Origin: an uncultured candidatus Porisulfidus sp.
GTDB lineage: Bacteria; Pseudomonadota; Gammaproteobacteria; Poriferisulfidales; Poriferisulfidaceae
DNA length: 64,000 bases
Reading direction: 5' to 3'
NCBI GenBank assembly: GCA_958431155.1
Contig: OY288106.1
Coordinates: 717,161-781,160, forward strand
Part shown: piece by piece, positions 2,687 through 52,224 of the stretch
How the letters are laid out: every line of letters begins with the position of its first letter
Numbering within the stretch: position 1 is the first letter of the stretch
Notes under the pieces: model-generated
Told to the model about the DNA's origin: nothing
Database searches by the model: none
What the model saw: the letters and a program-made list of their open reading frames with translations, nothing else
Translations under genes and position numbers: made by a program

Positions 2687-3715
2687 TTACTCGGGCTCCT
2701 CGCCCCCTTCAAGGATATCGGACCAGCGCAACGCCATGCTGTTGTGCGCGAAAGACGGAATCCGGAATGCCCAGCCCTCGAGGTGTCGGGCAAGCAGGTC
2801 CGCCTGGGCATGATCCTCCTCACTCATGTTCTCTCCCAAATGCACCGTAAAGCGCGCATACCGCTCCACACCCACGGAGAACAGACGCGCCTCCAAGCTG
2901 TAGCCCTGGTAGAACTCGTACCTGGCACGGGCGACATCCTTTAGGTAGACCTCGGCCTGGGACGCCGGCATGACGTCCTCCAACGACAGGCTGGTGATGG
3001 CACTGGCCATGCGGTTGAGCGCGTATTCGCTTTTCAGCACCGCACCTTCCGGGAGGTTTAGCACGGTGAATTTCACGTCCTCCGCCTCTTCCGCGCGTTG
3101 CCCCTCGATTCTTTCGCCGTCCGGGTGAACGACTTCCATGCGGGACACCTGTTCCATCCCGATGTCCAGCAGGTTCGTATCGAGCCAGCGCCGCGGCTCT
3201 TCCGGAATCGTGAAGGTTCGGTCCACGAGCCAGCTTTGATCGGCGTCGGCGTTCCTCACATAGGTGGCGCTGCGCCCATCCGGGCTCGTGCCGATGCGAA
3301 CTGACCGCTCGCCGTCTGCGGAATGGAGTGTGACCAACCGCCCTTTCGCATCCAACCGTTCGATGCCGCCTAGGCCCAACTGGGCATGCTGCGCCGGGTC
3401 GCTGGTCTTGCGTTCCAGCAGTTTCGCCTCCGACAGATCCAGCAGAAGGCTGCGGATGGCTCCGACGTTCGCGGGGTAGTGCTGGCGCTGCACCACGCCC
3501 CAGCCCTCCGGGCGGCGCTCCAAGGTGACCTCCGGCACATTTCCAGGGCCGGTGACGTCAATGCGGGTGACAGAGTTGATGTCGAGATTCTCGAGCCACA
3601 AGGTCCCCATGTATTCCTGATCGCCGGACTGATGGCGGATGTTGTACATCACGGCCGTCAGTAACAGTACGGCCCCGGTCAGGACTGCCAGAATGCTCAA
3701 CTCGCGGCGGCTCAT
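2687..3715 (-). CDS. DUF4340-domain protein, last gene of the GldG-type ABC cluster
   Basis: N-terminal TM helix then a soluble domain. The ATG at 3715 overlaps the upstream stop as ATGA. This family typically follows GldG-like genes. Confidence 0.6.
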   Translation of the reverse strand: MSRRELSILAVLTGAVLLLTAVMYNIRHQSGDQEYMGTLWLENLDINSVTRIDVTGPGNVPEVTLERRPEGWGVVQRQHYPANVGAIRSLLLDLSEAKLLERKTSDPAQHAQLGLGGIERLDAKGRLVTLHSADGERSVRIGTSPDGRSATYVRNADADQSWLVDRTFTIPEEPRRWLDTNLLDIGMEQVSRMEVVHPDGERIEGQRAEEAEDVKFTVLNLPEGAVLKSEYALNRMASAITSLSLEDVMPASQAEVYLKDVARARYEFYQGYSLEARLFSVGVERYARFTVHLGENMSEEDHAQADLLARHLEGWAFRIPSFAHNSMALRWSDILEGGEEPE

Positions 3716-5595
3716 GAGGTCACCTTCCGGGCGCGGCGCCGGCGTTGGAAGAGCCACAGGCCGACTGCCGCCATGGTGATGAGAATCGGAACCAACCAGA
3801 TGTTGATCAGGCGCAGAATAGAGCCCAGGTGCTCGATATCCCGATCCAATTCGTGCCGGACCGAGCGCAGTTCACGTCGCACCCGCAACCGTTCCTGTTG
3901 GAAAGCCTCGATTTCCGCGCGTTGCTGTTCCGTCAGCAGGCTCTGCTCTCCCTCCTGCCTCAACTGCTGAATCCGGCTGATGTTCTCCTCCGCCTCCTGC
4001 AACCGCTTCTGGAGTTCTTCCTCTTTGGCATGAAACCGTTGTTCCGCCTGTCGGCGCAATTGTTCGACCACATGGAACGGCCGCGAGAATTCCGAGCGCC
4101 CGCGCAAGCCGATCAGGTCACCGCTGCCGGCCAGGCTCTCCAGCGCATTGGTCACGAAATCGCCATTGCTGGCCCAAGCCTGCACGATTCTCTGCCCGAA
4201 AAAGTTCTGCACTCGCGCCCACAGGGTGTCCGACAACATGTCCGCGTCCGCGACTACGATGGCGTCGAGTTTTTCCCGCGCTTCGGCCAGATGGCCATCC
4301 GCGGGTGCCTCCGCTCCTTCGGGCGGGCCAGACGGGTACATGCTTTGCGGCTGCAGCCGGACCCAAGCGGCCAAGGTCAAGGGAACGCCTCCGGGTTCGA
4401 ACCACTCCAGCAAGGCGGTCGGGTCCGGGAGGTACCGGTAGCGCGGCTTGGGGATCTCGCCGGAATCCTCCGAAGTGAACAGCAAGGGCTCGAATTCGCC
4501 TTCGAACGCATCCGTCTTCCTGATCTGGCCCGGGAATCCAAACGTGACCCGGGACAACTGGGCGGAAATCAGGTTGTCCCTGTTGATCCTCTTCTCATCG
4601 AGCCCGATGAACGAGACATGGCGGATCGGGCGCTGGACACTCGGGCTTTGCACCGGCAGGGCCAAGGTGCGGTCGGCCACAATTGCGTCCATGTCGACCT
4701 GAAGCCCCCAGACATCCAGCAATCTCTCGATCTCGGACGCCTGAATCCCCCCGGCATCCGGAGGGCTGCTGGCATCCTGGAACATGGGATCCTTGTCCGC
4801 GTAGGGGTCGACAAACAGCATCAGACGCCCTCCGCGCATCAGGAACTGGTCCACCGCGTAGAGCATTTTCTCGGATAGCCCTTTCGGGTGAATCAACATC
4901 AGGATGCGAATATCCGGATCGATCGCCCCGGACTCGAGATCGATCTGGCGAGTCTCGAACGACTGCCCGATTTGATCGAGAATTGCCCATTCGGGCGTCG
5001 ATCGCTGGCTCGCCAGGTCAAAACCTCCGAACACCTGCAGACTGGTCAATATTCCGACTACGGGCTTCGCCGGATTCGTCAGGGCGTAGATCAACTGGCT
5101 GATGTCGTATTCGAGGAAAGCTTCCCGGTCTGGTTGGAAAAATTCGATAACCTCGACGTCGTCCACCACGTTCGTGCCAACCAGGCCGAAGTACAGCTTG
5201 TCGCCGCCCTGCACCGGGACCGATTGCAGGTTGAATTCCGTCGCCCGATCTTCCTCTTCCGAGTACGGCGCCGGATCGATCACATGCAGGATCAATCGGC
5301 CGTCCGCGTAATGCGTATATTCTTCCAGCAACTCCCGGACCCTTCGCGCGTAGTTGCGCAGGTGGGCGTTTTCCGAACTGGCCCGATCCGAGAAGAACAG
5401 ATACAGGTTGATCGGTTGCTGGATGTCGTCGAGAACCTTCAGGGTCCCTTCGCTCATGGTGTAGAGCTTCTGCTCGGTCAGGTCCAGCCTCATGTTGTCC
5501 AGGGCCAGATTGCTCAGCATGATGCCCGAGACGAACAGCACGGCCAGCAGACTCAGGCCAGCCGCCGTATAGGTCTTGTTGTCCGGGCTGTTCAT
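3712..5595 (-). CDS. GldG-like ABC-transporter auxiliary component (ABC_transp_aux family)
   Basis: About 627 aa with N- and C-terminal TM helices flanking a large extracytoplasmic domain. ATGA overlap with the permease stop at 5592-5595. Confidence 0.7.
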   Translation of the reverse strand: MNSPDNKTYTAAGLSLLAVLFVSGIMLSNLALDNMRLDLTEQKLYTMSEGTLKVLDDIQQPINLYLFFSDRASSENAHLRNYARRVRELLEEYTHYADGRLILHVIDPAPYSEEEDRATEFNLQSVPVQGGDKLYFGLVGTNVVDDVEVIEFFQPDREAFLEYDISQLIYALTNPAKPVVGILTSLQVFGGFDLASQRSTPEWAILDQIGQSFETRQIDLESGAIDPDIRILMLIHPKGLSEKMLYAVDQFLMRGGRLMLFVDPYADKDPMFQDASSPPDAGGIQASEIERLLDVWGLQVDMDAIVADRTLALPVQSPSVQRPIRHVSFIGLDEKRINRDNLISAQLSRVTFGFPGQIRKTDAFEGEFEPLLFTSEDSGEIPKPRYRYLPDPTALLEWFEPGGVPLTLAAWVRLQPQSMYPSGPPEGAEAPADGHLAEAREKLDAIVVADADMLSDTLWARVQNFFGQRIVQAWASNGDFVTNALESLAGSGDLIGLRGRSEFSRPFHVVEQLRRQAEQRFHAKEEELQKRLQEAEENISRIQQLRQEGEQSLLTEQQRAEIEAFQQERLRVRRELRSVRHELDRDIEHLGSILRLINIWLVPILITMAAVGLWLFQRRRRARKVTS

Positions 5596-6326
5596 GCCGC
5601 CTTGCGGGCCCGAACCACGATCATGTTGGCGTACAGCCAAACCGAGATCAGGATCACGAAATAAGACAGATCCCGCAGATCGATCACGCCCTTGTTGATC
5701 GAGGAAAAATGGGTGAGAAAACTGAGCGACGCGATGGTGTCAACGACCGGTTGGGGCAGCCACAGCTGGAAGAAATCCAACACCAAGGGAAATCCGCTCA
5801 GCAGGAAGAGGAAGCAGGTCACGAGGCTGAGGATGAATGCCACGACCTGGTTGCGCGTGGTCGCGGAAATGCACGCGCCGATCGCCATGAAGCCGCCCGC
5901 CATCAGGAAACTGCCAAAGTAGGCACCCAAAATAATCCCGTTGTCCGGGTCCCCCAAGTAGTTGACCGTGAGCCAGATCGGGAACGTCAGCAGCAACGCG
6001 ATGCCGGTGAATATCCAAGCGGCCAGGAACTTCCCGAGTACGGCCTCGAACACGGTCACCGGAAGCGTAATCAGCAGTTCGATGCTTCCGGTCTTCCGTT
6101 CCTCCGCCCACAGGCGCATGGAAATGGCCGGGACCAGGAACAAGTACAACCACGGATGAAACGTGAAGAACGCGCCCAAGTCCGCTTGTTCGCGCTCGTA
6201 GAAATTCCCCAGATAGAAACTCAGCGCCCCGGACAGCAGGAGGAAAATCATGATGAAGACGTAGGCGACCGGCGTCTGGAAATAGCCGATCAGCTCCCGC
6301 CGCAGGATCGCCAGCAAGTTATTCAT
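5592..6326 (-). CDS. ABC-2 type permease (GldF-like)
   Basis: 244 aa, six predicted TM helices. Overlaps the ATPase gene by 8 nt. Confidence 0.8.
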   Translation of the reverse strand: MNNLLAILRRELIGYFQTPVAYVFIMIFLLLSGALSFYLGNFYEREQADLGAFFTFHPWLYLFLVPAISMRLWAEERKTGSIELLITLPVTVFEAVLGKFLAAWIFTGIALLLTFPIWLTVNYLGDPDNGIILGAYFGSFLMAGGFMAIGACISATTRNQVVAFILSLVTCFLFLLSGFPLVLDFFQLWLPQPVVDTIASLSFLTHFSSINKGVIDLRDLSYFVILISVWLYANMIVVRARKAA

Positions 6327-7245
6327 GGATGTTATGGGTCAGAGAGTGGAACACGTCGTCCAGCCGCCCGGCCTGGATGTGCAGCGGGACCTCCTTCAAG
6401 TTATGCCGCAGCAGGACATCGCGGACCGCGTCCTCCAGCATGCAGCCTCGCCGGGGAATCAGGGTCAGGCCCTGATTACGTTCCGGCTCCACCACCGCGA
6501 CATCCTCAAGTTCTCCGAGGGCGGCACGCACCGGCTCCTTCAACTGCGCCTGAATCGTGACCGCATTGCAGTACCGGGAGCGACGCCGCAACTCCTCGGG
6601 AGATTCGTCGACCAGGATCTTGCCTTCGGAGACGATGATGGCCCGGGTGCAGATGGCCTCGACCTCTTCGAGAATATGTGTCGAGATGATGATGGTTTTG
6701 TCGTGCGCCATTTCATTGATGAAGTCGCGCACCTGGCGCTTTTGGTTGGGGTCCAGCCCGTCGGTCGGCTCGTCCATGATCAGCACCCGCGGGTCGTGCA
6801 ACATGGCCTGTGCCAGGCCGACCCGGCGGCGGTAGCCTTTCGACAGTGTGTCGACCGGGCGGTGCAGAACCGGCTCCAGCCCCAGCTGCCCGATCACCCA
6901 GTCCAGCCGCTCGCGCCGGTTTTCCGGGCGCCGGATGTCCGCCACGAAATTCAGGAACTGCCACGGGGTCATCTCGCTGTACGCCGGCGCGCCTTCCGGC
7001 AGGTAGCCCAGGCATTTCTTGGCTTCCTGCGGCTCCGTGGCCACCGGATGCCCGCAGACCGATACCCGGCCGGAGGTCGGCGGAAGAAAGCCGGTGATTA
7101 TCTTCATGGTCGTGGACTTCCCGGCGCCGTTCGGGCCGAGAAAACCCAGGACCTCGCCTGGCCCGACCTCGAAACTCAAGTCATCGACGGCATGCAGGTC
7201 GCCGTAGATCTTGACCAGGTTCTCGACCACAACTGATCCGGACAT
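6319..7245 (-). CDS. ABC transporter ATP-binding protein (GldA-like)
   Basis: Walker A GPNGAGKST, signature LSKGYRRRVGLA, Walker B LIMDEPT. Confidence 0.9.
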   Translation of the reverse strand: MSGSVVVENLVKIYGDLHAVDDLSFEVGPGEVLGFLGPNGAGKSTTMKIITGFLPPTSGRVSVCGHPVATEPQEAKKCLGYLPEGAPAYSEMTPWQFLNFVADIRRPENRRERLDWVIGQLGLEPVLHRPVDTLSKGYRRRVGLAQAMLHDPRVLIMDEPTDGLDPNQKRQVRDFINEMAHDKTIIISTHILEEVEAICTRAIIVSEGKILVDESPEELRRRSRYCNAVTIQAQLKEPVRAALGELEDVAVVEPERNQGLTLIPRRGCMLEDAVRDVLLRHNLKEVPLHIQAGRLDDVFHSLTHNIHE

Positions 7246-7372
7246 CTGAATTTTCCTCTGCTTCCTTATCGAGTGTTGGGTTGTTTCAGGAAGTACTGGT
7301 TAACATGGGGATTGTGTCTGTCGTTTCAAGCGGGATCCTGCCATCCTACGCGCAATCAAGCCCGACAGACTT

Positions 7373-8431
7373 CTAATTCTGATAATAGTAATCGTAGCGC
7401 CTGAGTAAATCCAGCGAGAACCGCCAGCCTTCCTGGTAGGTCAGGTTGCTGTCCATCGGAATCACGATCCGGACGAACAGCTTGTCGCCGTGTTCCTGCT
7501 TGAGCCCCGACAGAACCCGGTGCATTTCCTCTTTCTCGACAGGCTCGAATTTCGCGGCGTCCGGAGGCTTGAGCATAAGGGACGGCTGCCCCTCCACCTT
7601 CCGGTAGCGAACGGCGGCCACCACCTTGCCCAAGGGGCTGCGGGCCGGCTTCGACAGAGCCGCGTACTTCTCGCCCATTTGCTCGTACTCCTTCTGCAGG
7701 AGTTCCAGCTCTTCGCGAGTCTGTCGCTGCTGCTTCTCGACCTCCACGTACATCTGCTCGCGCAGCACGCCTTCCTCCTGCATCTGCGCCAGCTGCTCCT
7801 GCACCTCAAGCAACTCCTGCCTCCGCTCCGCGCTGATGGTCTGGCTCTCCCGCATTTCGGCCTGCACCCGCGCATGCTCCTCCCGTATGTCCGCCAACTG
7901 AGCCTGCTGCTCGGCCAACGCGGTCTGCGCGCCAGCCAGATCCCTCTCCCTTGCCTCCAACTGCCCGATCTTGCCCTGCAGCGCCTCACGGGTCTTCTCC
8001 ATGCGGGTCCGCATTTCGGCCTGCGCCCGCGCATGCTCCTCCCGTACGTCCACCAACTGAGCCTGCTGCTCGGCCAACGCGGTCTGCGCGCCGGCCAGAT
8101 CCCTCTCCCTTGCCTCCAGCTGCCCGATCTTGCCCTGCAGCGCCTCACGGGTCTTCTCCATGCGGGTCCGCATTTCCCCCAACTCAAGCTGGAGCAGTAT
8201 CTGGCGCAGGTTCAGGTCTTCCGCCCGCTCCCTGGCCTGCTGTTCCAGCGCGGCCGTCTCCTGGACTTGTCTGGACAGGTCCCAGTTGTGCAGGACTGCC
8301 ACCGTGCCGGACAGCAAAAACACGATGACCACGACCATCATGATGTCGGTGAAGGACGGCCAGAAGTTTTCCTCGTTGATCGAGGACAAGGGGAAAGCGT
8401 AGTCGGGAAGCGAGGATTGACTGCCGATCAT
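7373..8431 (-). CDS. Stator B-like subunit: a TolR/ExbD/MotB-type TM helix with the conserved Asp, fused to a long coiled coil and a C-terminal domain of unknown type.
   Basis: N-terminal WPSFTDIMMVVVIVFLL resembles the MotB/TolR W..ADxM motif. About 200 aa is E/A/Q/R-rich heptad sequence with a tandem 53-aa repeat. No OmpA-like motif in the C-terminal ~90 aa. Confidence 0.55.
   Translation of the reverse strand: MIGSQSSLPDYAFPLSSINEENFWPSFTDIMMVVVIVFLLSGTVAVLHNWDLSRQVQETAALEQQARERAEDLNLRQILLQLELGEMRTRMEKTREALQGKIGQLEARERDLAGAQTALAEQQAQLVDVREEHARAQAEMRTRMEKTREALQGKIGQLEARERDLAGAQTALAEQQAQLADIREEHARVQAEMRESQTISAERRQELLEVQEQLAQMQEEGVLREQMYVEVEKQQRQTREELELLQKEYEQMGEKYAALSKPARSPLGKVVAAVRYRKVEGQPSLMLKPPDAAKFEPVEKEEMHRVLSGLKQEHGDKLFVRIVIPMDSNLTYQEGWRFSLDLLRRYDYYYQN
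7859..8176 (-). repeat. Two tandem direct copies of a 159-bp unit (about 96% identical), with a partial third copy downstream, inside the coiled-coil CDS.
   Basis: Copy A (7859-8017) and copy B (8018-8176) differ at about 6 positions. They encode EMRTRMEKTREALQGKIGQLEARERDLAGAQTALAEQQAQLVDVREEHARAQA twice. Confidence 0.9.
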
Positions 8432-8437
8432 GATTCC

Positions 8438-9346
8438 TTACTGATCCAGCCGGAACCCTTTCTTCAGGGTCTGGTTAACCTTTCGCAGCGCTTCCAGCAG
8501 CTGCTCGTCTTGTTCGTTCTGCACGTGCCTTTCATGCCGCGTGGCGTCAAGATGGGGGGTCAGGCTCGCGCCGTCTCGCGTGACCAGCGGCAGAACCCGC
8601 CGCAAAGTCAGCAGCTCGATCCGCTGGCACACACTGGACTGACCAGCCACCAGCCGGGAAAAGATGAGAGTCAGTACCAGATAGGCCGCGATGGCTGTCA
8701 TCGTGGTGGAGAGCGCTGTCGCCATCCCGTGGACCACCAAGGTGATGCCGCCTCCGTTCTGCGGGAAGGACAACAGGTCGGAAGCCCCGACTAGAGCCAG
8801 AGACAGCGATGCGACCGTACCGAACACGCCGAGCAGGATCAGCAGGCTCTGTATCAGGCGGATCAGGCCGAGGCGCGTCACCTCCTGGTTCATCAGGATG
8901 GCCGACAAGGCCGCCTGCTGAGGGCGATCCAGTTCCGACTGGCTTTGCTGAAAAACGCGGTAGCGCTGCACGATCAGGGAGTCGGACAGATCTTCGATAC
9001 CGGCTTCGGTCAGGCCGAAATTCATTTGTTCCTCGAACTGGTCGATGGAACGGTTTTCGCGGGTGTAGTCGAGCAGCAGGTAGAAAATCCGCCCCAGTGC
9101 CACCAGAAACAACGCGACGATGATACTGTTGACGACCATGCCGAGTTCTGTCGCCAGAGGCCCCCAGTAGATTTCTGCCAAGACCGCTCTTTGCCAGACC
9201 AGCAAGCTGGCGAACAGGAGCAATGCGACTCCCGCCTGTAGCATCATGAAGTGGGGACGGCTCGTAAAAATCTTATGAATCATAGCGTTAGCGATAAAAT
9301 ATTGCCCGTTTTCAATCTCTTGAATCGGGGAAGTATAGCAGAGCAA
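8438..9346 (-). CDS. MotA/TolQ/ExbB proton-channel family protein (4 TM)
   Basis: Topology is 2 TM, a cytoplasmic loop, then 2 TM. TM3/TM4 motifs LLGVFGTVASLSL and ATALSTTMTAIAAY match the MotA/ExbB family. Start is uncertain: TTG at 9346, alternative ATGs at 9283 and 9247. Confidence 0.7.
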   Translation of the reverse strand: MLCYTSPIQEIENGQYFIANAMIHKIFTSRPHFMMLQAGVALLLFASLLVWQRAVLAEIYWGPLATELGMVVNSIIVALFLVALGRIFYLLLDYTRENRSIDQFEEQMNFGLTEAGIEDLSDSLIVQRYRVFQQSQSELDRPQQAALSAILMNQEVTRLGLIRLIQSLLILLGVFGTVASLSLALVGASDLLSFPQNGGGITLVVHGMATALSTTMTAIAAYLVLTLIFSRLVAGQSSVCQRIELLTLRRVLPLVTRDGASLTPHLDATRHERHVQNEQDEQLLEALRKVNQTLKKGFRLDQ

Positions 9347-9366: not shown

Positions 9367-9669
9367 TGGTGCGGGCGGAGGGATTCGAACCCCCACGGGC
9401 AAAGCCCAGCGGATTTTCGCACCAGCTACGGCTTTCGCCGCCGCCGCTTGCGCGGCGTTTGTGGTCCGGACTATCCCTTCACCTTAGCCATCCGGCCTTA
9501 GGTGCTGCCCGTCTAGTCTCTACACCTTCCCGAAAGTTCCCTTCCGGGCTTGGCTCGGGATCGCCATTCCACAGGGTTCCCCGAATTTGAGCAGTTCTGC
9601 ATCTCCGGTTTCCCGAAGAGCACTCAATGGCCTCAAGTCCGCAGCGTCTACCGATTCCGCCACGCCCGC
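9367..9669 (-). tRNA. leuZ: tRNA-Leu(UAA) gene (leuZ-like) interrupted by a group I intron. Exons are 9635-9669 and 9367-9417.
   Basis: 5' exon GCGGGCGUGGCGGAAUCGGUAGACGCUGCGGACUU. 3' exon AAAAUCCGC, variable arm GGGCUUUGCCC, T-arm GGGGGUUCGAAUCCCUC and acceptor CGCCCGCACCA. Anticodon loop CUU|AAAA gives UAA. The exons total 86 nt and fold as a class II tRNA. Confidence 0.85.
9418..9634 (-). ncRNA. Group I intron (tRNA-Leu UAA type, IC3-like) inserted between U34 and A35. No ORF.
   Basis: Starts right after the exon U and ends in G. Internal GUGUAGAGACUAGACGG (R-like) and GAUAGUCC (S-like) elements, plus CCCGAGCCAAGCC, resemble cyanobacterial/plastid tRNA-Leu introns. Confidence 0.75.
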
Positions 9670-10018: not shown

Positions 10019-11170
10019 TTACTTCATGGTCCCGATGAAACTCCCTACCCAAGCCCCACTTTCACCGTTAGCAAACTCGTACTCTCCTCCGCCTGTCCCC
10101 ATGACAGCCCTGGGGTTAAAGTTTTCATCAAGCATGTTGGAAAAGGTTCCTCCGAGGCTTCCTTGGTTGAAAACCACCGGCGACCTTTGACTGCCTGTTT
10201 TTCTGGTCAGACTTGTGCTTTGGGTCTCAAACGTTCCATTCGATTGAACCACAGCCGTCGCCCGATAAATTAATTCATTCGGCACTGCCGTAAAGCGAGA
10301 GGTTGCCCCGTCAGCCGAAACATAGTGCCCGTAAAGTAGCGTATCCTCATCGCAGCCAGTGCAATAGTCCAGTGCTCCGGTGGCAAAATCTATATTCAGA
10401 GTCATATCGCCAATGTACTGACCGATCTCTCTCGAACTGTCCACATAGTCGTGATAGTACACGCCTTGTGCGCCTCCCGTGTACGTGGCCGATCCCGTAT
10501 CCGGCAAGGTTGGAGGAGAAGCCGAGTCAATTTCCGGACTGTCGATATATGCGCCAAGCTCAACTGCAGCTTGGGCCAGGTAAGGATTGCCCTCTGACCG
10601 AATCCAGTACCCTCCAACATACCAATTCCCGGAATTTCCCCAGCCCCTTTCGATGTACGAGGCGAAGAACAGACTCTCGGAGTCTTCATGGACATGATAC
10701 GAGTACTGGACATCTGTTTGGCCGGGAGGCACAAACTGCCTATTTGGGTTAATCACTCCAGAGAGCCAAGCGTCATCAGAAGAATCAAAAATAAAAGTCG
10801 AGCCATCCTCTCGAGTCACGGTAATTTCGGCCGTGATTCCATCAAAAGTGGCAGAAGCCTGATCGGTTGTCCTCCCATTGGCATCGACATTCGAAGACTG
10901 GGTCACACTGCCATATTTTGGAAGAGCAGTCGCCGCCGTTTTGAAACTCTGAGCCTGGGCATCATCGGTGGAAGTTGTGTTTTCCACCGGATCAGATGTA
11001 GAGGTCATGTCAGTTGTGTCGGTTGCGCCGACGCTCCCGCCACCGCCACCACCGCCGCCGCAGGCGGCCAGCGTCAGTGAAGCAAAAGCCAGAAAAGCAA
11101 GTAGTGCGTAGTGGAATTTTCCCTCTCTTCTTAAGTTGGAATCAGGGAAAGCAAGGGCTATGAATTGCAT
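10019..11170 (-). CDS. Lipoprotein with a poly-Gly linker and a possible TbpB-like C-terminal barrel/handle domain. About 50% GC against about 63% background.
   Basis: Signal peptide plus lipobox LTLAAC followed by GGGGGGGG and an S/T/D-rich linker. C-terminus AVMGTGGGEYEFANGESGAWVGSFIGTMK. SD AGGA lies 8 nt upstream of the ATG at 11170. Confidence 0.6.
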   Translation of the reverse strand: MQFIALAFPDSNLRREGKFHYALLAFLAFASLTLAACGGGGGGGGSVGATDTTDMTSTSDPVENTTSTDDAQAQSFKTAATALPKYGSVTQSSNVDANGRTTDQASATFDGITAEITVTREDGSTFIFDSSDDAWLSGVINPNRQFVPPGQTDVQYSYHVHEDSESLFFASYIERGWGNSGNWYVGGYWIRSEGNPYLAQAAVELGAYIDSPEIDSASPPTLPDTGSATYTGGAQGVYYHDYVDSSREIGQYIGDMTLNIDFATGALDYCTGCDEDTLLYGHYVSADGATSRFTAVPNELIYRATAVVQSNGTFETQSTSLTRKTGSQRSPVVFNQGSLGGTFSNMLDENFNPRAVMGTGGGEYEFANGESGAWVGSFIGTMK

Positions 11171-11429
11171 GGTTGTCCTAATATCTGGTTGGTGAAAGCG
11201 ATTTCCCTCCGGGGAGTATCGAGTAGCATTATAGAGGCACTTTATGACGATGCGATTGAGCAACCTGCCGAGGGAAGCGATGCAGGGGGCCCCAAATTCA
11301 ATTGCAAGAACGGAGAATCCTTGCGCCCATTTCAATCGACGATTTTCTTTTCTGTTAAAATTGATTACTTAGCCTCTTTCCGGCGGCGATTTCGCATCAT
11401 GCCGGGCAAGGTTGCCTGAATCAATAGAG

Positions 11430-12749
11430 ATGAGGACCCCCCAAGTGGATCGAGAAAAACAGATTGAAGCCCTGCAGAAGGACTGGGATACCAACCCTCG
11501 ATGGAGCGATGTGCGCCGCGGCTACACGGCAGAGGATGTCGTGCGCCTGCGCGGCTCGCGCGTGCCCGCCAACACCACCGCGACGGAAGGCGCCGAAAAA
11601 CTCTGGCGCCTAGTCAACGGCGAGGCGCGCAAAGGTTACGTCAACTGCCTCGGCGCCCTGACCGGCGGACAGGCGGTCCAACAGGTCAAGGCCGGCATCG
11701 AGGCCATCTACCTGTCCGGCTGGCAGGTCGCCGCGGATGCCAATACGTCCGAGACCATGTACCCGGACCAGTCGCTGTACGCCTACGATTCGGTGCCGAC
11801 CGTGGTGCGCCGTATCAACAACGCGTTCAAGCGCGCGGACGAGATCCAGTGGTCCCGCGGAACCAACCCTGGCGATGAAGGATTCGTCGACTACTTCGCC
11901 CCGATCGTGGCGGATGCCGAGGCCGGTTTCGGCGGCGTGCTCAATGCCTTCGAGTTGATGAAGAACATGATCAACAACGGGGCCGCCGGGGTCCACTACG
12001 AAGATCAGCTGGCCGCCGTCAAGAAGTGTGGCCATATGGGCGGAAAGGTGCTGGTCCCGACCCAAGAAGCCGTTCAGAAACTAGTCGCGGCACGACTGGC
12101 CGCCGACGTCATGGGCGTCCCCACCGTAGTGCTGGCACGCACCGATTCGGAGGCCGCGAATCTCGTGACCTCCGACTTCGACGAGAACGACAAGCCCTTC
12201 CTGACCGGCGAGCGGACCTCCGAAGGTTTCTACCGCGTGCGCAATGGCCTGGATCAGGCGATTTCACGCGGACTGGCGTACGCTCCGTATGCGGACCTGG
12301 TGTGGTGCGAAACCGGGACCCCGGACCTGGAATTCGCCAGAGCGTTCGCGGAAGCCCTGCGCAAGGAGTACCCGAACCAGCTGCTGGCCTACAACTGCTC
12401 CCCTTCCTTCAACTGGAAGAAAAACCTGGACGACGCAACCATTGCGAAGTTCCAGCGCGAGCTGTCGGCGATGGGCTACAAGTACCAGTTCATCACCCTG
12501 GCCGGCATCCACAGCATGTGGTACAACATGTTCGACCTCGCTTACGACTATGCGGGCGAGGAAGGCATGAAGCACTACGTGGAGAAGGTCCAGGAGCCGG
12601 AATTCGCATCGGCAGACCGGGGCTACACGTTCGTCAGCCACCAGCAGGAGGTCGGTGCTGGCTACTTCGATGATGTGACTACCGTCATTCAGGGCGGGCA
12701 GTCCTCTGTCACGGCATTGACCGGGTCCACCGAAGAAGAGCAGTTCTGA
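11430..12749 (+). CDS. aceA: isocitrate lyase
   Basis: Catalytic KKCGH motif; full-length similarity to bacterial ICL. The ORF track starts at a TTG at 11412; the ATG at 11430 is preferred. Confidence 0.92.
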
Positions 12750-12770
12750 AGGCCCTCGGCCGAGGGCACC

Positions 12771-14114
<1,344 letters not shown>

Positions 14115-51594: not shown

Positions 51595-52224
51595 TTATTT
51601 CGAATAGAATTCAACGACTAAAGACTCGTTGATTTCCCTGTAAATCTCTTCGCGCGCGGGGGGCTGTTTGAAAGTCCCTTCAAACTTGTCGAAATCGACG
51701 TCCACCCAGTCTGGCAGGCCCTGCTGCTTGGCGATACCGATCGCGTCCTTGATCCGCACCTGTTCGCGCATCTTCTCGCGGATCGCGACCACGTCGCCAG
51801 CCATGACCGAATACGACGGGATGTTGACTACTTTGCCGTTCACTTCGATGCCCTTGTGCGAGACGATCTGGCGGCATTCCGCGCGGGTCGTGCCGAAGCC
51901 CATGCGGTACACCACATTGTCCAGCCGGCACTCCAGCAGACGCAGCAAGTTGTCACCGGTCGAGCCCTTGGCCTGCGAGGCTTTTTTGTAGTAGTTGCGG
52001 AACTGCCGCTCAAGCACGCCGTAGAGGCGGCGCAGCTTCTGCTTCTCGCGCAGCTGCAGGCCGTAATCGGAGATTCGCCCACGGCGGCCTCCGCGCCCAC
52101 CCTTGCTGCCTGGCGGCACGTCGAGCTTGCACTTCTTATCCAGTTCGCGCACCGGCGACTTGAGCTCCAGGTTGGTGCCCTCGCGCCGCATAAGCTTGCA
52201 TCGGGGTCCGAGATAGCGTGCCAT
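51595..52224 (-). CDS. rpsD: 30S ribosomal protein S4
   Basis: [11 protein letters not shown]... Confidence 0.95.

Follow-up and report, generated by a model that had tools for sequence, protein, structure and literature searches.

The 64,000-nucleotide (nt) stretch of DNA analysed here, referred to as the window (contig OY288106.1 of assembly GCA_958431155.1, positions 717,161 to 781,160), comes from an uncultured Candidatus Porisulfidus sp. and carries on its minus strand two adjacent genes, here called A and B. Gene A encodes a membrane protein of the MotA/TolQ/ExbB superfamily with four transmembrane (TM) segments, and gene B a protein in which a single TM helix bearing an aspartate is followed by a long coiled coil and a compact end domain. 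The relatives of both proteins are all unnamed or annotated as 'hypothetical', and no description of the A–B family was found in the literature, subscription journals lying outside the scope of that search. A–B is an unnamed family with a new architecture within the known superfamily of 5:2 motors (MotAB, ExbBD, TolQR, GldLM and ZorAB), a small set of machines that move inner-membrane energy into the envelope and in which every newly recognised architecture has revealed another mode of force transmission. Downstream of the pair lies a cassette containing an ATP-binding cassette (ABC) transporter, and upstream of it an array of tRNA genes (Table 1).

Table 1. Features of the A–B locus, in window coordinates (aa, amino acids).
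Feature	Position	Strand	Details or basis
Gene A, 4-TM MotA/TolQ/ExbB-superfamily subunit	8438..9346	(-)	302 aa from TTG at 9346
A TM3, residues 168-186, motif LILLGVFGT177	8789..8845	(-)	family alignment; hhalign to TolQ
A TM4, residues 204-234, motif HGM-x-TALSTT215	8645..8737	(-)	family alignment; hhalign to TolQ
Gene B, single-TM Asp-bearing subunit, 352 aa	7373..8431	(-)	open reading frame (ORF); starts 6 nt past A stop codon
B residues 23-48, motif FWPSFTD29-x-MMV and TM helix	8288..8365	(-)	invariant family columns
B residues 49-259, predicted continuous helix, heptad coiled coil	7655..8287	(-)	AlphaFold model and periodicity
In-frame tandem duplication in B coiled coil, 159 nt x 2.1 copies, 97% matches	7850..8176	(-)	Tandem Repeats Finder
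B residues 268-349, putative TolR/ExbD-like periplasmic domain (beta-beta-beta-alpha-beta-alpha)	7385..7630	(-)	predicted model
Spacer between B and ABC ATPase, 127 nt	7246..7372	(-)	no convincing terminator
ABC/GldG/DUF4340 module, apparently independent of pair	2687..7245	(-)	Pfam and NCBIfam
ABC ATPase, GldA-like	7245-6319	(-)	
ABC-2 permease, GldF-like	6326-5592	(-)	
GldG-like auxiliary protein (ABC_transp_aux and DUF7088)	5640-3712	(-)	
DUF4340 protein	3757-2687	(-)	
tRNA-Gly	9894-9819	(-)	
tRNA-Cys	9779-9706	(-)	
Split tRNA-Leu(UAA), exons 9669-9635 and 9417-9367, intron 9634-9418	9367-9669	(-)	Rfam and in-silico splicing

Architecture of the A and B proteins

The A protein, which includes LLGVFGTVASLSL and ATALSTTMTAIAAY, matches the Pfam model MotA_ExbB (PF01618) over residues 138–243 with 26.6 bits, exceeding the gathering score of 22.9, and the same model is matched at E ≤ 0.01 by 24 of 25 members of the A family. 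No NCBIfam model, including those for MotA, PomA, TolQ and ExbB, matched A. The family alignment reveals an alternative start at Met22 (position 9283, giving 281 aa), which is probably the true one because the majority of relatives begin at this position. Four hydrophobic segments are present (residues 33–51, 74–92, 168–186 and 211–234), and the loops at residues 55–68 and 188–203 contain no Lys or Arg at all; the topology is therefore of the MotA type, with four TM helices and both termini in the cytoplasm (N-in/C-in).

Sequence conservation in A is concentrated in the last two helices, where T177 in TM3 and G207, M208, T210, A211, L212, T214 and T215 in TM4 are invariant in the family alignment. 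Alignment by hhalign with the canonical TolQ of a zetaproteobacterial locus (L035) places TM2 of A on TM1 of TolQ, LILLGVFGT177 on GLFGT, and GMATALSTT215 on GIAEALVAT. From what is established for TolQ and ExbB, we take the invariant threonines of A to form a polar ring facing the aspartate of B; these channel threonines and the B aspartate both persist down to about 30% sequence identity. In this respect the threonines are comparable to Thr147 and Ser184 as described for ZorA (PMC11946911). The predicted model of A shows the fold of a 5:2-motor A subunit. When it was used as a Foldseek query, the top 46 matches were all ExbB, TolQ or ZorA chains, and the predicted fold is nearer to these proteins than to MotA.

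The cytoplasmic part of A that follows TM4 measures about 70 aa. After residue 268 (near position 8540, minus strand; alignment columns 270–300) the window protein lacks some 31 residues of the C-terminal cytoplasmic helix, a gap that is shared with relatives at 96–100% identity, while the segment is present in all other family members.

The B protein, which includes WPSFTDIMMVVVIVFLL, has one hydrophobic segment (residues 30–48), and in the family alignment the columns from F23 to D29, as well as M31, M32 and V33, are invariant. The corresponding motif, [FVI]WP[SA]FTD[IV]M, was found in all 75 recovered B ORFs, and hhalign places Asp29 (codon 8347–8345, minus strand) on the aspartate of canonical TolR. 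When the B profile was run against all PDB sequences the matches were mostly coiled-coil noise, the sole specific one being the ZorB chain 8vvn_B (profile positions 15–72, E 1.6e-5). Zor models of PADLOC give weak partial matches to the window proteins (ZorA1 with A, E 0.0035; ZorB1 with B, E 4.6e-5, TM region only); across the family, such matches are given by 8 of 25 A proteins and by 25 of 26 B proteins, the latter aligning with the N-terminal region of ZorB1. NCBIfam returned for B only coiled-coil and SMC-type noise and a weak match to NF006543 (PRK09039), a 'peptidoglycan-binding protein' that likewise combines a TM helix, a coiled coil and a wall-binding end domain. This match covers the TM helix and coiled coil (E 0.0027; 17.5 bits against a cut-off of 305), and the C-terminal domain of NF006543 is presumably OmpA-like rather than TolR-like.

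The AlphaFold model of B contains an unbroken helix over residues 28–259, with a predicted local distance difference test score (pLDDT) of about 90. In the sequence, core hydrophobic residues recur with a 3.5-residue periodicity whose power is 2.18, compared with a shuffle mean of 0.17 and equalled in none of 2000 shuffles, and no proline occurs over 206 residues of the coiled coil. Its length is estimated at ~32 nm, versus ~24 nm in relatives of 299 aa. The difference of about 8 nm corresponds to a tandem duplication of 53 residues, in which residues 87–139 and 140–192 are identical at 50 of 53 positions and which is missing from the 299-aa relatives. The duplication is recent, and because 53 is not a multiple of seven it shifts the heptad register by four. 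The gap in the A tail being confined to the window protein and its relatives at 96–100% identity, the A deletion accompanies the B duplication in this cluster of strains.

Beyond the coiled coil, an invariant hinge modelled with low confidence (K-P-A-R-S-x-x-G-K) leads into a compact C-terminal domain (residues 270–346, pLDDT about 90) that closes with a near-invariant YDYYY. In the predicted model this domain has a TolR/ExbD-type fold and is not an orphan domain. A Pfam scan of B found neither OmpA (PF00691) nor MotB_plug (PF13677), and window B did not match the ExbD/TolR families (Pfam PF02472; the TolR and ExbD equivalogs of NCBIfam) at E ≤ 1. About half of the B homologues match Pfam ExbD weakly, over the TM region only, the best reaching 18.4 bits where the gathering score is 25.4. 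As modelled, B resembles TolR/ExbD but has a long coiled coil placed between its TM helix and its periplasmic domain.

Much of what an earlier note on this DNA had proposed from the letters of the sequence stands. Both ORFs lie on the minus strand where that note had put them and contain all the peptides it had quoted; A is the 4-TM MotA/ExbB-superfamily protein, and B the single-TM protein with a protonatable aspartate, that it had described. It was also right that the architecture of B, in which an ExbD/TolR-type TM helix precedes a long coiled coil and an OmpA domain is lacking, is unusual, and that the layout is not that of flagellar, Tol-Pal, Ton or Zorya systems. The coiled coil it had seen is real (about 210 residues, in heptads), but ~53 of these residues are the product of the recent duplication. 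Similarly, the ~90-aa C-terminal domain indeed has no OmpA motif, but it need not be regarded as unrecognised given the TolR/ExbD-type fold of the model.

Distribution, pairing and selection

A scan of one genome per species revealed relatives of A in at least 566 species-level genomes, and a search of the A profile against 1.84 billion representatives returned 498 clusters (50% identity) at E ≤ 1e-10. Carriers of the pair include Candidatus Porisulfidus (the sponge-symbiont lineage from which the window comes), Arenicellales, Chromatiales, Sedimenticolaceae, Thioglobus (a relative of SUP05), Leucothrix, symbionts of tubeworms and clams, and Zetaproteobacteria including Mariprofundus ferrooxydans PV-1. 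The family belongs to Zetaproteobacteria and to marine Gammaproteobacteria, among which sulfur oxidisers and symbionts of invertebrates are numerous. It is retained in symbiont genomes of 1.5–2 Mb. No A–B relatives were found on viral contigs, and a phage or mobile origin was for this reason dropped.

In all 80 loci, a B homologue lies immediately downstream of A, separated by a few nt or overlapping it. Outside the lineage of the window the two genes form an isolated unit amid unrelated housekeeping genes. In 17–19 loci (for example L029, L032, L034, L056 and L074) this unit is inserted between mnmE, ~150 nt upstream, and mnmG, ~20 nt downstream, within a block that is conserved apart from this insertion (rnpA-yidC-mnmE-[A-B]-mnmG-rsmG-parA-parB). 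When the ORFs lying up to 5 kb from the pair were clustered across the 80 loci in search of a conserved third partner, only lineage-specific synteny emerged, namely the mnmE/mnmG block in 17–19 loci and, in 10 loci, the ABC cassette.

The length of B varies from 291 to 1107 aa, the 299-aa form being the commonest; the longest proteins (925–1107 aa) are those of Arenicellales, and long B ORFs occur in L029, L037, L056 and L058. Part of the B coiled coil in L029 (Arenicellales; positions 12112–13129) is a tandem repeat of 231 nt, equivalent to 77 aa or 11 heptads, in 4.4 copies with 90% identity. The repeats in this protein and in window B imply that the length of the B stalk changes repeatedly, at least in part by tandem duplication. 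Such natural variation, including the 53-residue duplication of the window, provides a ready series for relating stalk length to the geometry of the periplasm.

Within Porisulfidus, the ratio of non-synonymous to synonymous substitution rates (dN/dS) of A and B is 0.14–0.20, and that of the neighbouring ABC ATPase and permease 0.035–0.13. Both A and B are under purifying selection, with weaker constraint than on the two ABC genes. Given these ratios, and ORFs that are intact in all loci, the idea of a pseudogene or a decaying locus was rejected.

One member of the A family (P0301, locus L094, positions 6001–8010) has an extra repetitive helical C-terminal tail of ~370 residues, an architecture resembling that of ZorA, and is followed by genes for a 439-aa protein without a Pfam match and for a Fic-domain protein.

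A candidate 5:2 motor and its alternatives

The family can be set against each of the known motors. The likeness to TolQ-TolR(-TolA) is seen in the channel motifs GxFGT and G-x-x-x-AL-x-x-T, which align with A, in the position of the TM aspartate, and in the helical periplasmic segment of B, which recalls domain II of TolA. However, A has an additional N-terminal TM helix compared with TolQ, and B differs from the compact TolR and ExbD (about 140 aa) in the 160–1000 residues of coiled coil that separate its TM helix from its TolR-like domain. The pair also has no TolA, TolB, Pal, YbgC or CpoB genes of its own, and its similarity to Tol-Pal components falls under family thresholds. With ExbB-ExbD(-TonB) it shares the ExbD-like TM motif P-x-x-D-[VI]-M-x-V in B, but there is neither a TonB partner nor the context of a TonB-dependent receptor, and the stalk is built into B instead of being a separate, proline-rich TonB. 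It differs from flagellar MotAB/PomAB in that B has no MotB plug or OmpA domain and A is not closest to MotA or PomA.

Two further systems are comparable in design. Pentamers of TolQ-like proteins with von Willebrand factor A (vWA) transducers, whose Asp-bearing 'transpore helix' sits in the pentamer, have been predicted earlier (PMC12204202); there, as here, a TolQ-like gene is paired solely with a partner that bears its own periplasmic output domain, so that the axle would be the force transducer. In the vWA systems the output domain is carried on a linker and the pairs are usually heterologous, whereas B would form a coiled coil of the homodimer type that ends in a TolR-like domain; both assemblies are predictions. 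GldL-GldM resembles A–B in its presumed working only, GldM being an elongated, periplasm-spanning dimer thought to be a rotating shaft driven by its pentameric inner-membrane partner. GldM is built of globular domains rather than a coiled coil and is confined to Bacteroidota, with Gld, Spr and Por partners. GldL and GldM were missing from the match lists of the fold searches, and no relation to A–B in sequence or fold was detected.

We consider it probable that A and B form an autonomous motor driven by the proton motive force (PMF), an A5B2 assembly belonging to the ZorAB/ExbBD/TolQR branch rather than a flagellar stator, and independent of the neighbouring cassette. What we infer about its stoichiometry, its coupling to the PMF, the placement of the stalk in the periplasm, the binding target and the physiological role is as follows. 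Five 4-TM A subunits would form a ring around the TM helices of two B subunits, and a proton path comprising Asp29 of B and Thr177 and Thr215 of A would drive rotation of A5 and B2 relative to each other. On the periplasmic side, the B dimer would be prolonged by a parallel coiled coil, typically ~24 nm long and ~32 nm here, at the end of which a dimer of TolR-type domains may engage peptidoglycan or a partner close to the outer membrane. The distance between inner membrane and peptidoglycan in E. coli is about 9 nm (PMC11946911). Either B would be fixed to the wall while A turns, or B would itself turn as a shaft, as has been proposed for GldM. As no TolA- or TonB-like gene accompanies the pair, it is likely that the axle itself is the output element; a single chain would combine the role of TolR/ExbD with the reach of TolA/TonB, making a third transducer gene superfluous. 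The pair may in this respect represent a compact, two-gene solution, in which an Asp-bearing axle carries its own coiled-coil stalk and TolR-type end domain.

The location of the pair in the core genome and its retention in symbiont genomes of 1.5–2 Mb suggest a housekeeping envelope function, not defence, and the unit would be a vertically inherited envelope module of marine Gammaproteobacteria and Zetaproteobacteria. More tentatively, and with some doubt, we propose that A–B may constitute an undescribed class of 5:2 motor in which the axle is a trans-periplasmic force transducer, possibly a rotating shaft in the manner of GldM, with a stalk retuned by duplication and a conserved housekeeping role in the envelope. 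If this is true, a conserved envelope function spans sulfur oxidisers, symbionts of invertebrates and iron-oxidising Zetaproteobacteria. The pair is widespread among marine chemolithotrophs and symbionts that are ecologically important and poorly tractable, and is kept in their reduced genomes.

Several observations weigh against an autonomous motor with a periplasmic stalk. The longest B coiled coils would measure ~150 nm if straight, far beyond the width of the periplasm, and a simple 'ruler' perpendicular to the membrane therefore fails for the family as a whole. The hhalign alignment of A with TolQ has a probability of just 22%, and the A profile, run against all PDB sequences, found no ExbB, TolQ, MotA or ZorA chain at E ≤ 1. 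The TolR-like fold of B derives from a single AlphaFold model built from 26 sequences, and the positive-inside rule leaves the orientation of B unsettled. Independence from the cassette is qualified by the spacers of 42–127 nt and the lack of a terminator, which make co-transcription of pair and cassette possible in Porisulfidus.

Alternatively, the pair might have retained the motor fold as a passive tether or spacer, with the coiled coil acting as a static strut or anchor that undergoes no ion-driven movement. The great variability of coiled-coil length through tandem duplication is what may be expected of a structural spacer, and the search for an output partner yielded none. However, an invariant aspartate and invariant channel threonines over a range reaching down to ~30% identity would be needless in a strut, and the coupling of the two genes is strict. 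We regard this explanation as unlikely.

A second alternative, that A–B is a ZorAB-type sensor of envelope integrity in anti-phage defence, with its effectors encoded elsewhere or lost, draws on what are the closest relatives by sequence profile. The first outgroup of A consists of proteins of 500–690 aa that PADLOC calls ZorA3 (E about 1e-24), one of which is followed by a B subunit with an OmpA domain; in addition, the N-terminus of B matches ZorB models and P0301 bears its long ZorA-like tail. The two systems (ZorAB structures 8qyd and 8vvn; PMC11946911) would further share an ion path of Asp with Thr/Ser and the attachment of a very long coiled coil to a core of the 5:2 type. The coiled coil of Zorya, however, is the cytoplasmic tail of ZorA, whereas here it is presumably the periplasmic part of B, and A has a short cytoplasmic tail; ZorB joins an OmpA-type peptidoglycan-binding domain directly to its TM helix (PMC11946911), while the stalk of B terminates in a TolR-type domain. 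The ZorA protein of E. coli moreover has three TM helices. No effector gene, whether like ZorC/D, ZorE, ZorF/G or another, lies beside the pair in any lineage examined, and there is no defence-island context; instead, the pair occupies core-genome positions, as between mnmE and mnmG in 17 loci, is kept in small symbiont genomes and is absent from the viral contigs searched. A Zorya-like role is, on balance, quite unlikely.

The earlier note had also suggested that the motor and the neighbouring cassette together form one envelope machine energised by both PMF and ATP. The arrangement it described is correct, in that B is separated by 127 nt (7246–7372) from a GldA-like ATPase gene on the same strand, followed by GldF-like, GldG-like and DUF4340 genes. 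A scan of the spacer found no terminator, and a weak promoter-like site (7409–7382) lies within the 3' end of B. All 10 Candidatus Porisulfidus loci long enough to show it (L002–L011) retain this order, as does the related L090; A identity drops to 49% among them, and the spacers shorten to 42–47 nt. Nevertheless, trxB, which lies beyond the cassette in convergent orientation on the plus strand, is part of the same conserved order, and since the entire region is syntenic in Porisulfidus the adjacency there is weakly informative.

Elsewhere the two do not travel together. None of the 69 other pair-bearing loci has the cassette within 10 kb, the pair standing alone or between mnmE and mnmG. Conversely, L089 encodes a GldG-like protein 66% identical to that of the window and keeps the order DUF4340-trxB-ftsK-lolA-rarA, but the pair is missing and its expected place is taken by genes for a methyltransferase, an Mrr-type nuclease and a deaminase; the more distant cassettes of L091 and L092 are likewise without the pair. 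Sequence evolution is also more rapid in A and B than in the ABC ATPase or permease. The proteins of the cassette do not reach the NCBIfam cut-offs for GldA (297.8 against 402.6), GldF (172.3 against 288.5) and GldG (76 against 389.85) and are for this reason not gliding orthologues. When neighbourhoods were tabulated, as the note had recommended, adjacency of pair and cassette was thus not conserved beyond close relatives, which is the outcome that the note itself had named as contradicting its proposal. The comparative evidence offers no support for a joint machine, which we consider very unlikely; on the same evidence, pair and cassette appear as independent modules juxtaposed in a single lineage of sponge symbionts, and the window locus gives no ground for annotating the ABC/GldG/DUF4340 cassette as coupled to a motor.

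Finally, that the pair is simply the organism's TolQR or ExbBD, diverged in sequence, is barely credible: ExbB and TolQ do lead the Foldseek matches of A, the modelled end domain of B is TolR-like and half of the B homologues have weak ExbD matches, but these stay under the gathering score and do not reach beyond the TM region, no NCBIfam TolQ, TolR, ExbB or ExbD equivalog is matched at E ≤ 1, A has four TM helices instead of three, B has more than 160 residues of inserted coiled coil, neither tolA, tolB, pal nor tonB adjoins the pair, L035 possesses a canonical ybgC-tolQ-tolR-tolA operon 5 kb from its A–B pair, and L083 has a separate pair of MotA and MotB_plug/OmpA proteins and a TonB gene.

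Other features of the window

The gene immediately upstream of A, for tRNA-Leu(UAA), contains a group I intron of 217 nt at the classical U34/A35 site. This intron is matched by the Rfam model Intron_gpI with 48.5 bits (E 3.5e-11) against a gathering score of 50, and when it is spliced out in silico a tRNA-Leu(UAA) of 86 nt results, whose CCA end is encoded; ARAGORN, run on the genomic sequence, missed the split gene. It is found upstream of A in eight Porisulfidus loci (L001, L003–L008 and L011) at 84–97% identity. Group I introns in tRNA-Leu(UAA) are typical of cyanobacteria and plastids, with one case described from a gammaproteobacterium.

Between aceA and the tRNA array, a predicted lipoprotein of 438 aa is encoded on the minus strand (10019–11335), with the lipobox LTLAAC followed by a run of Gly; its counterpart in L081 has no Pfam match. 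The G+C content of the window is 0.63–0.66 between positions 52000 and 64000, where the AT skew is strongly negative, and 0.56–0.60 between 24 and 46 kb.

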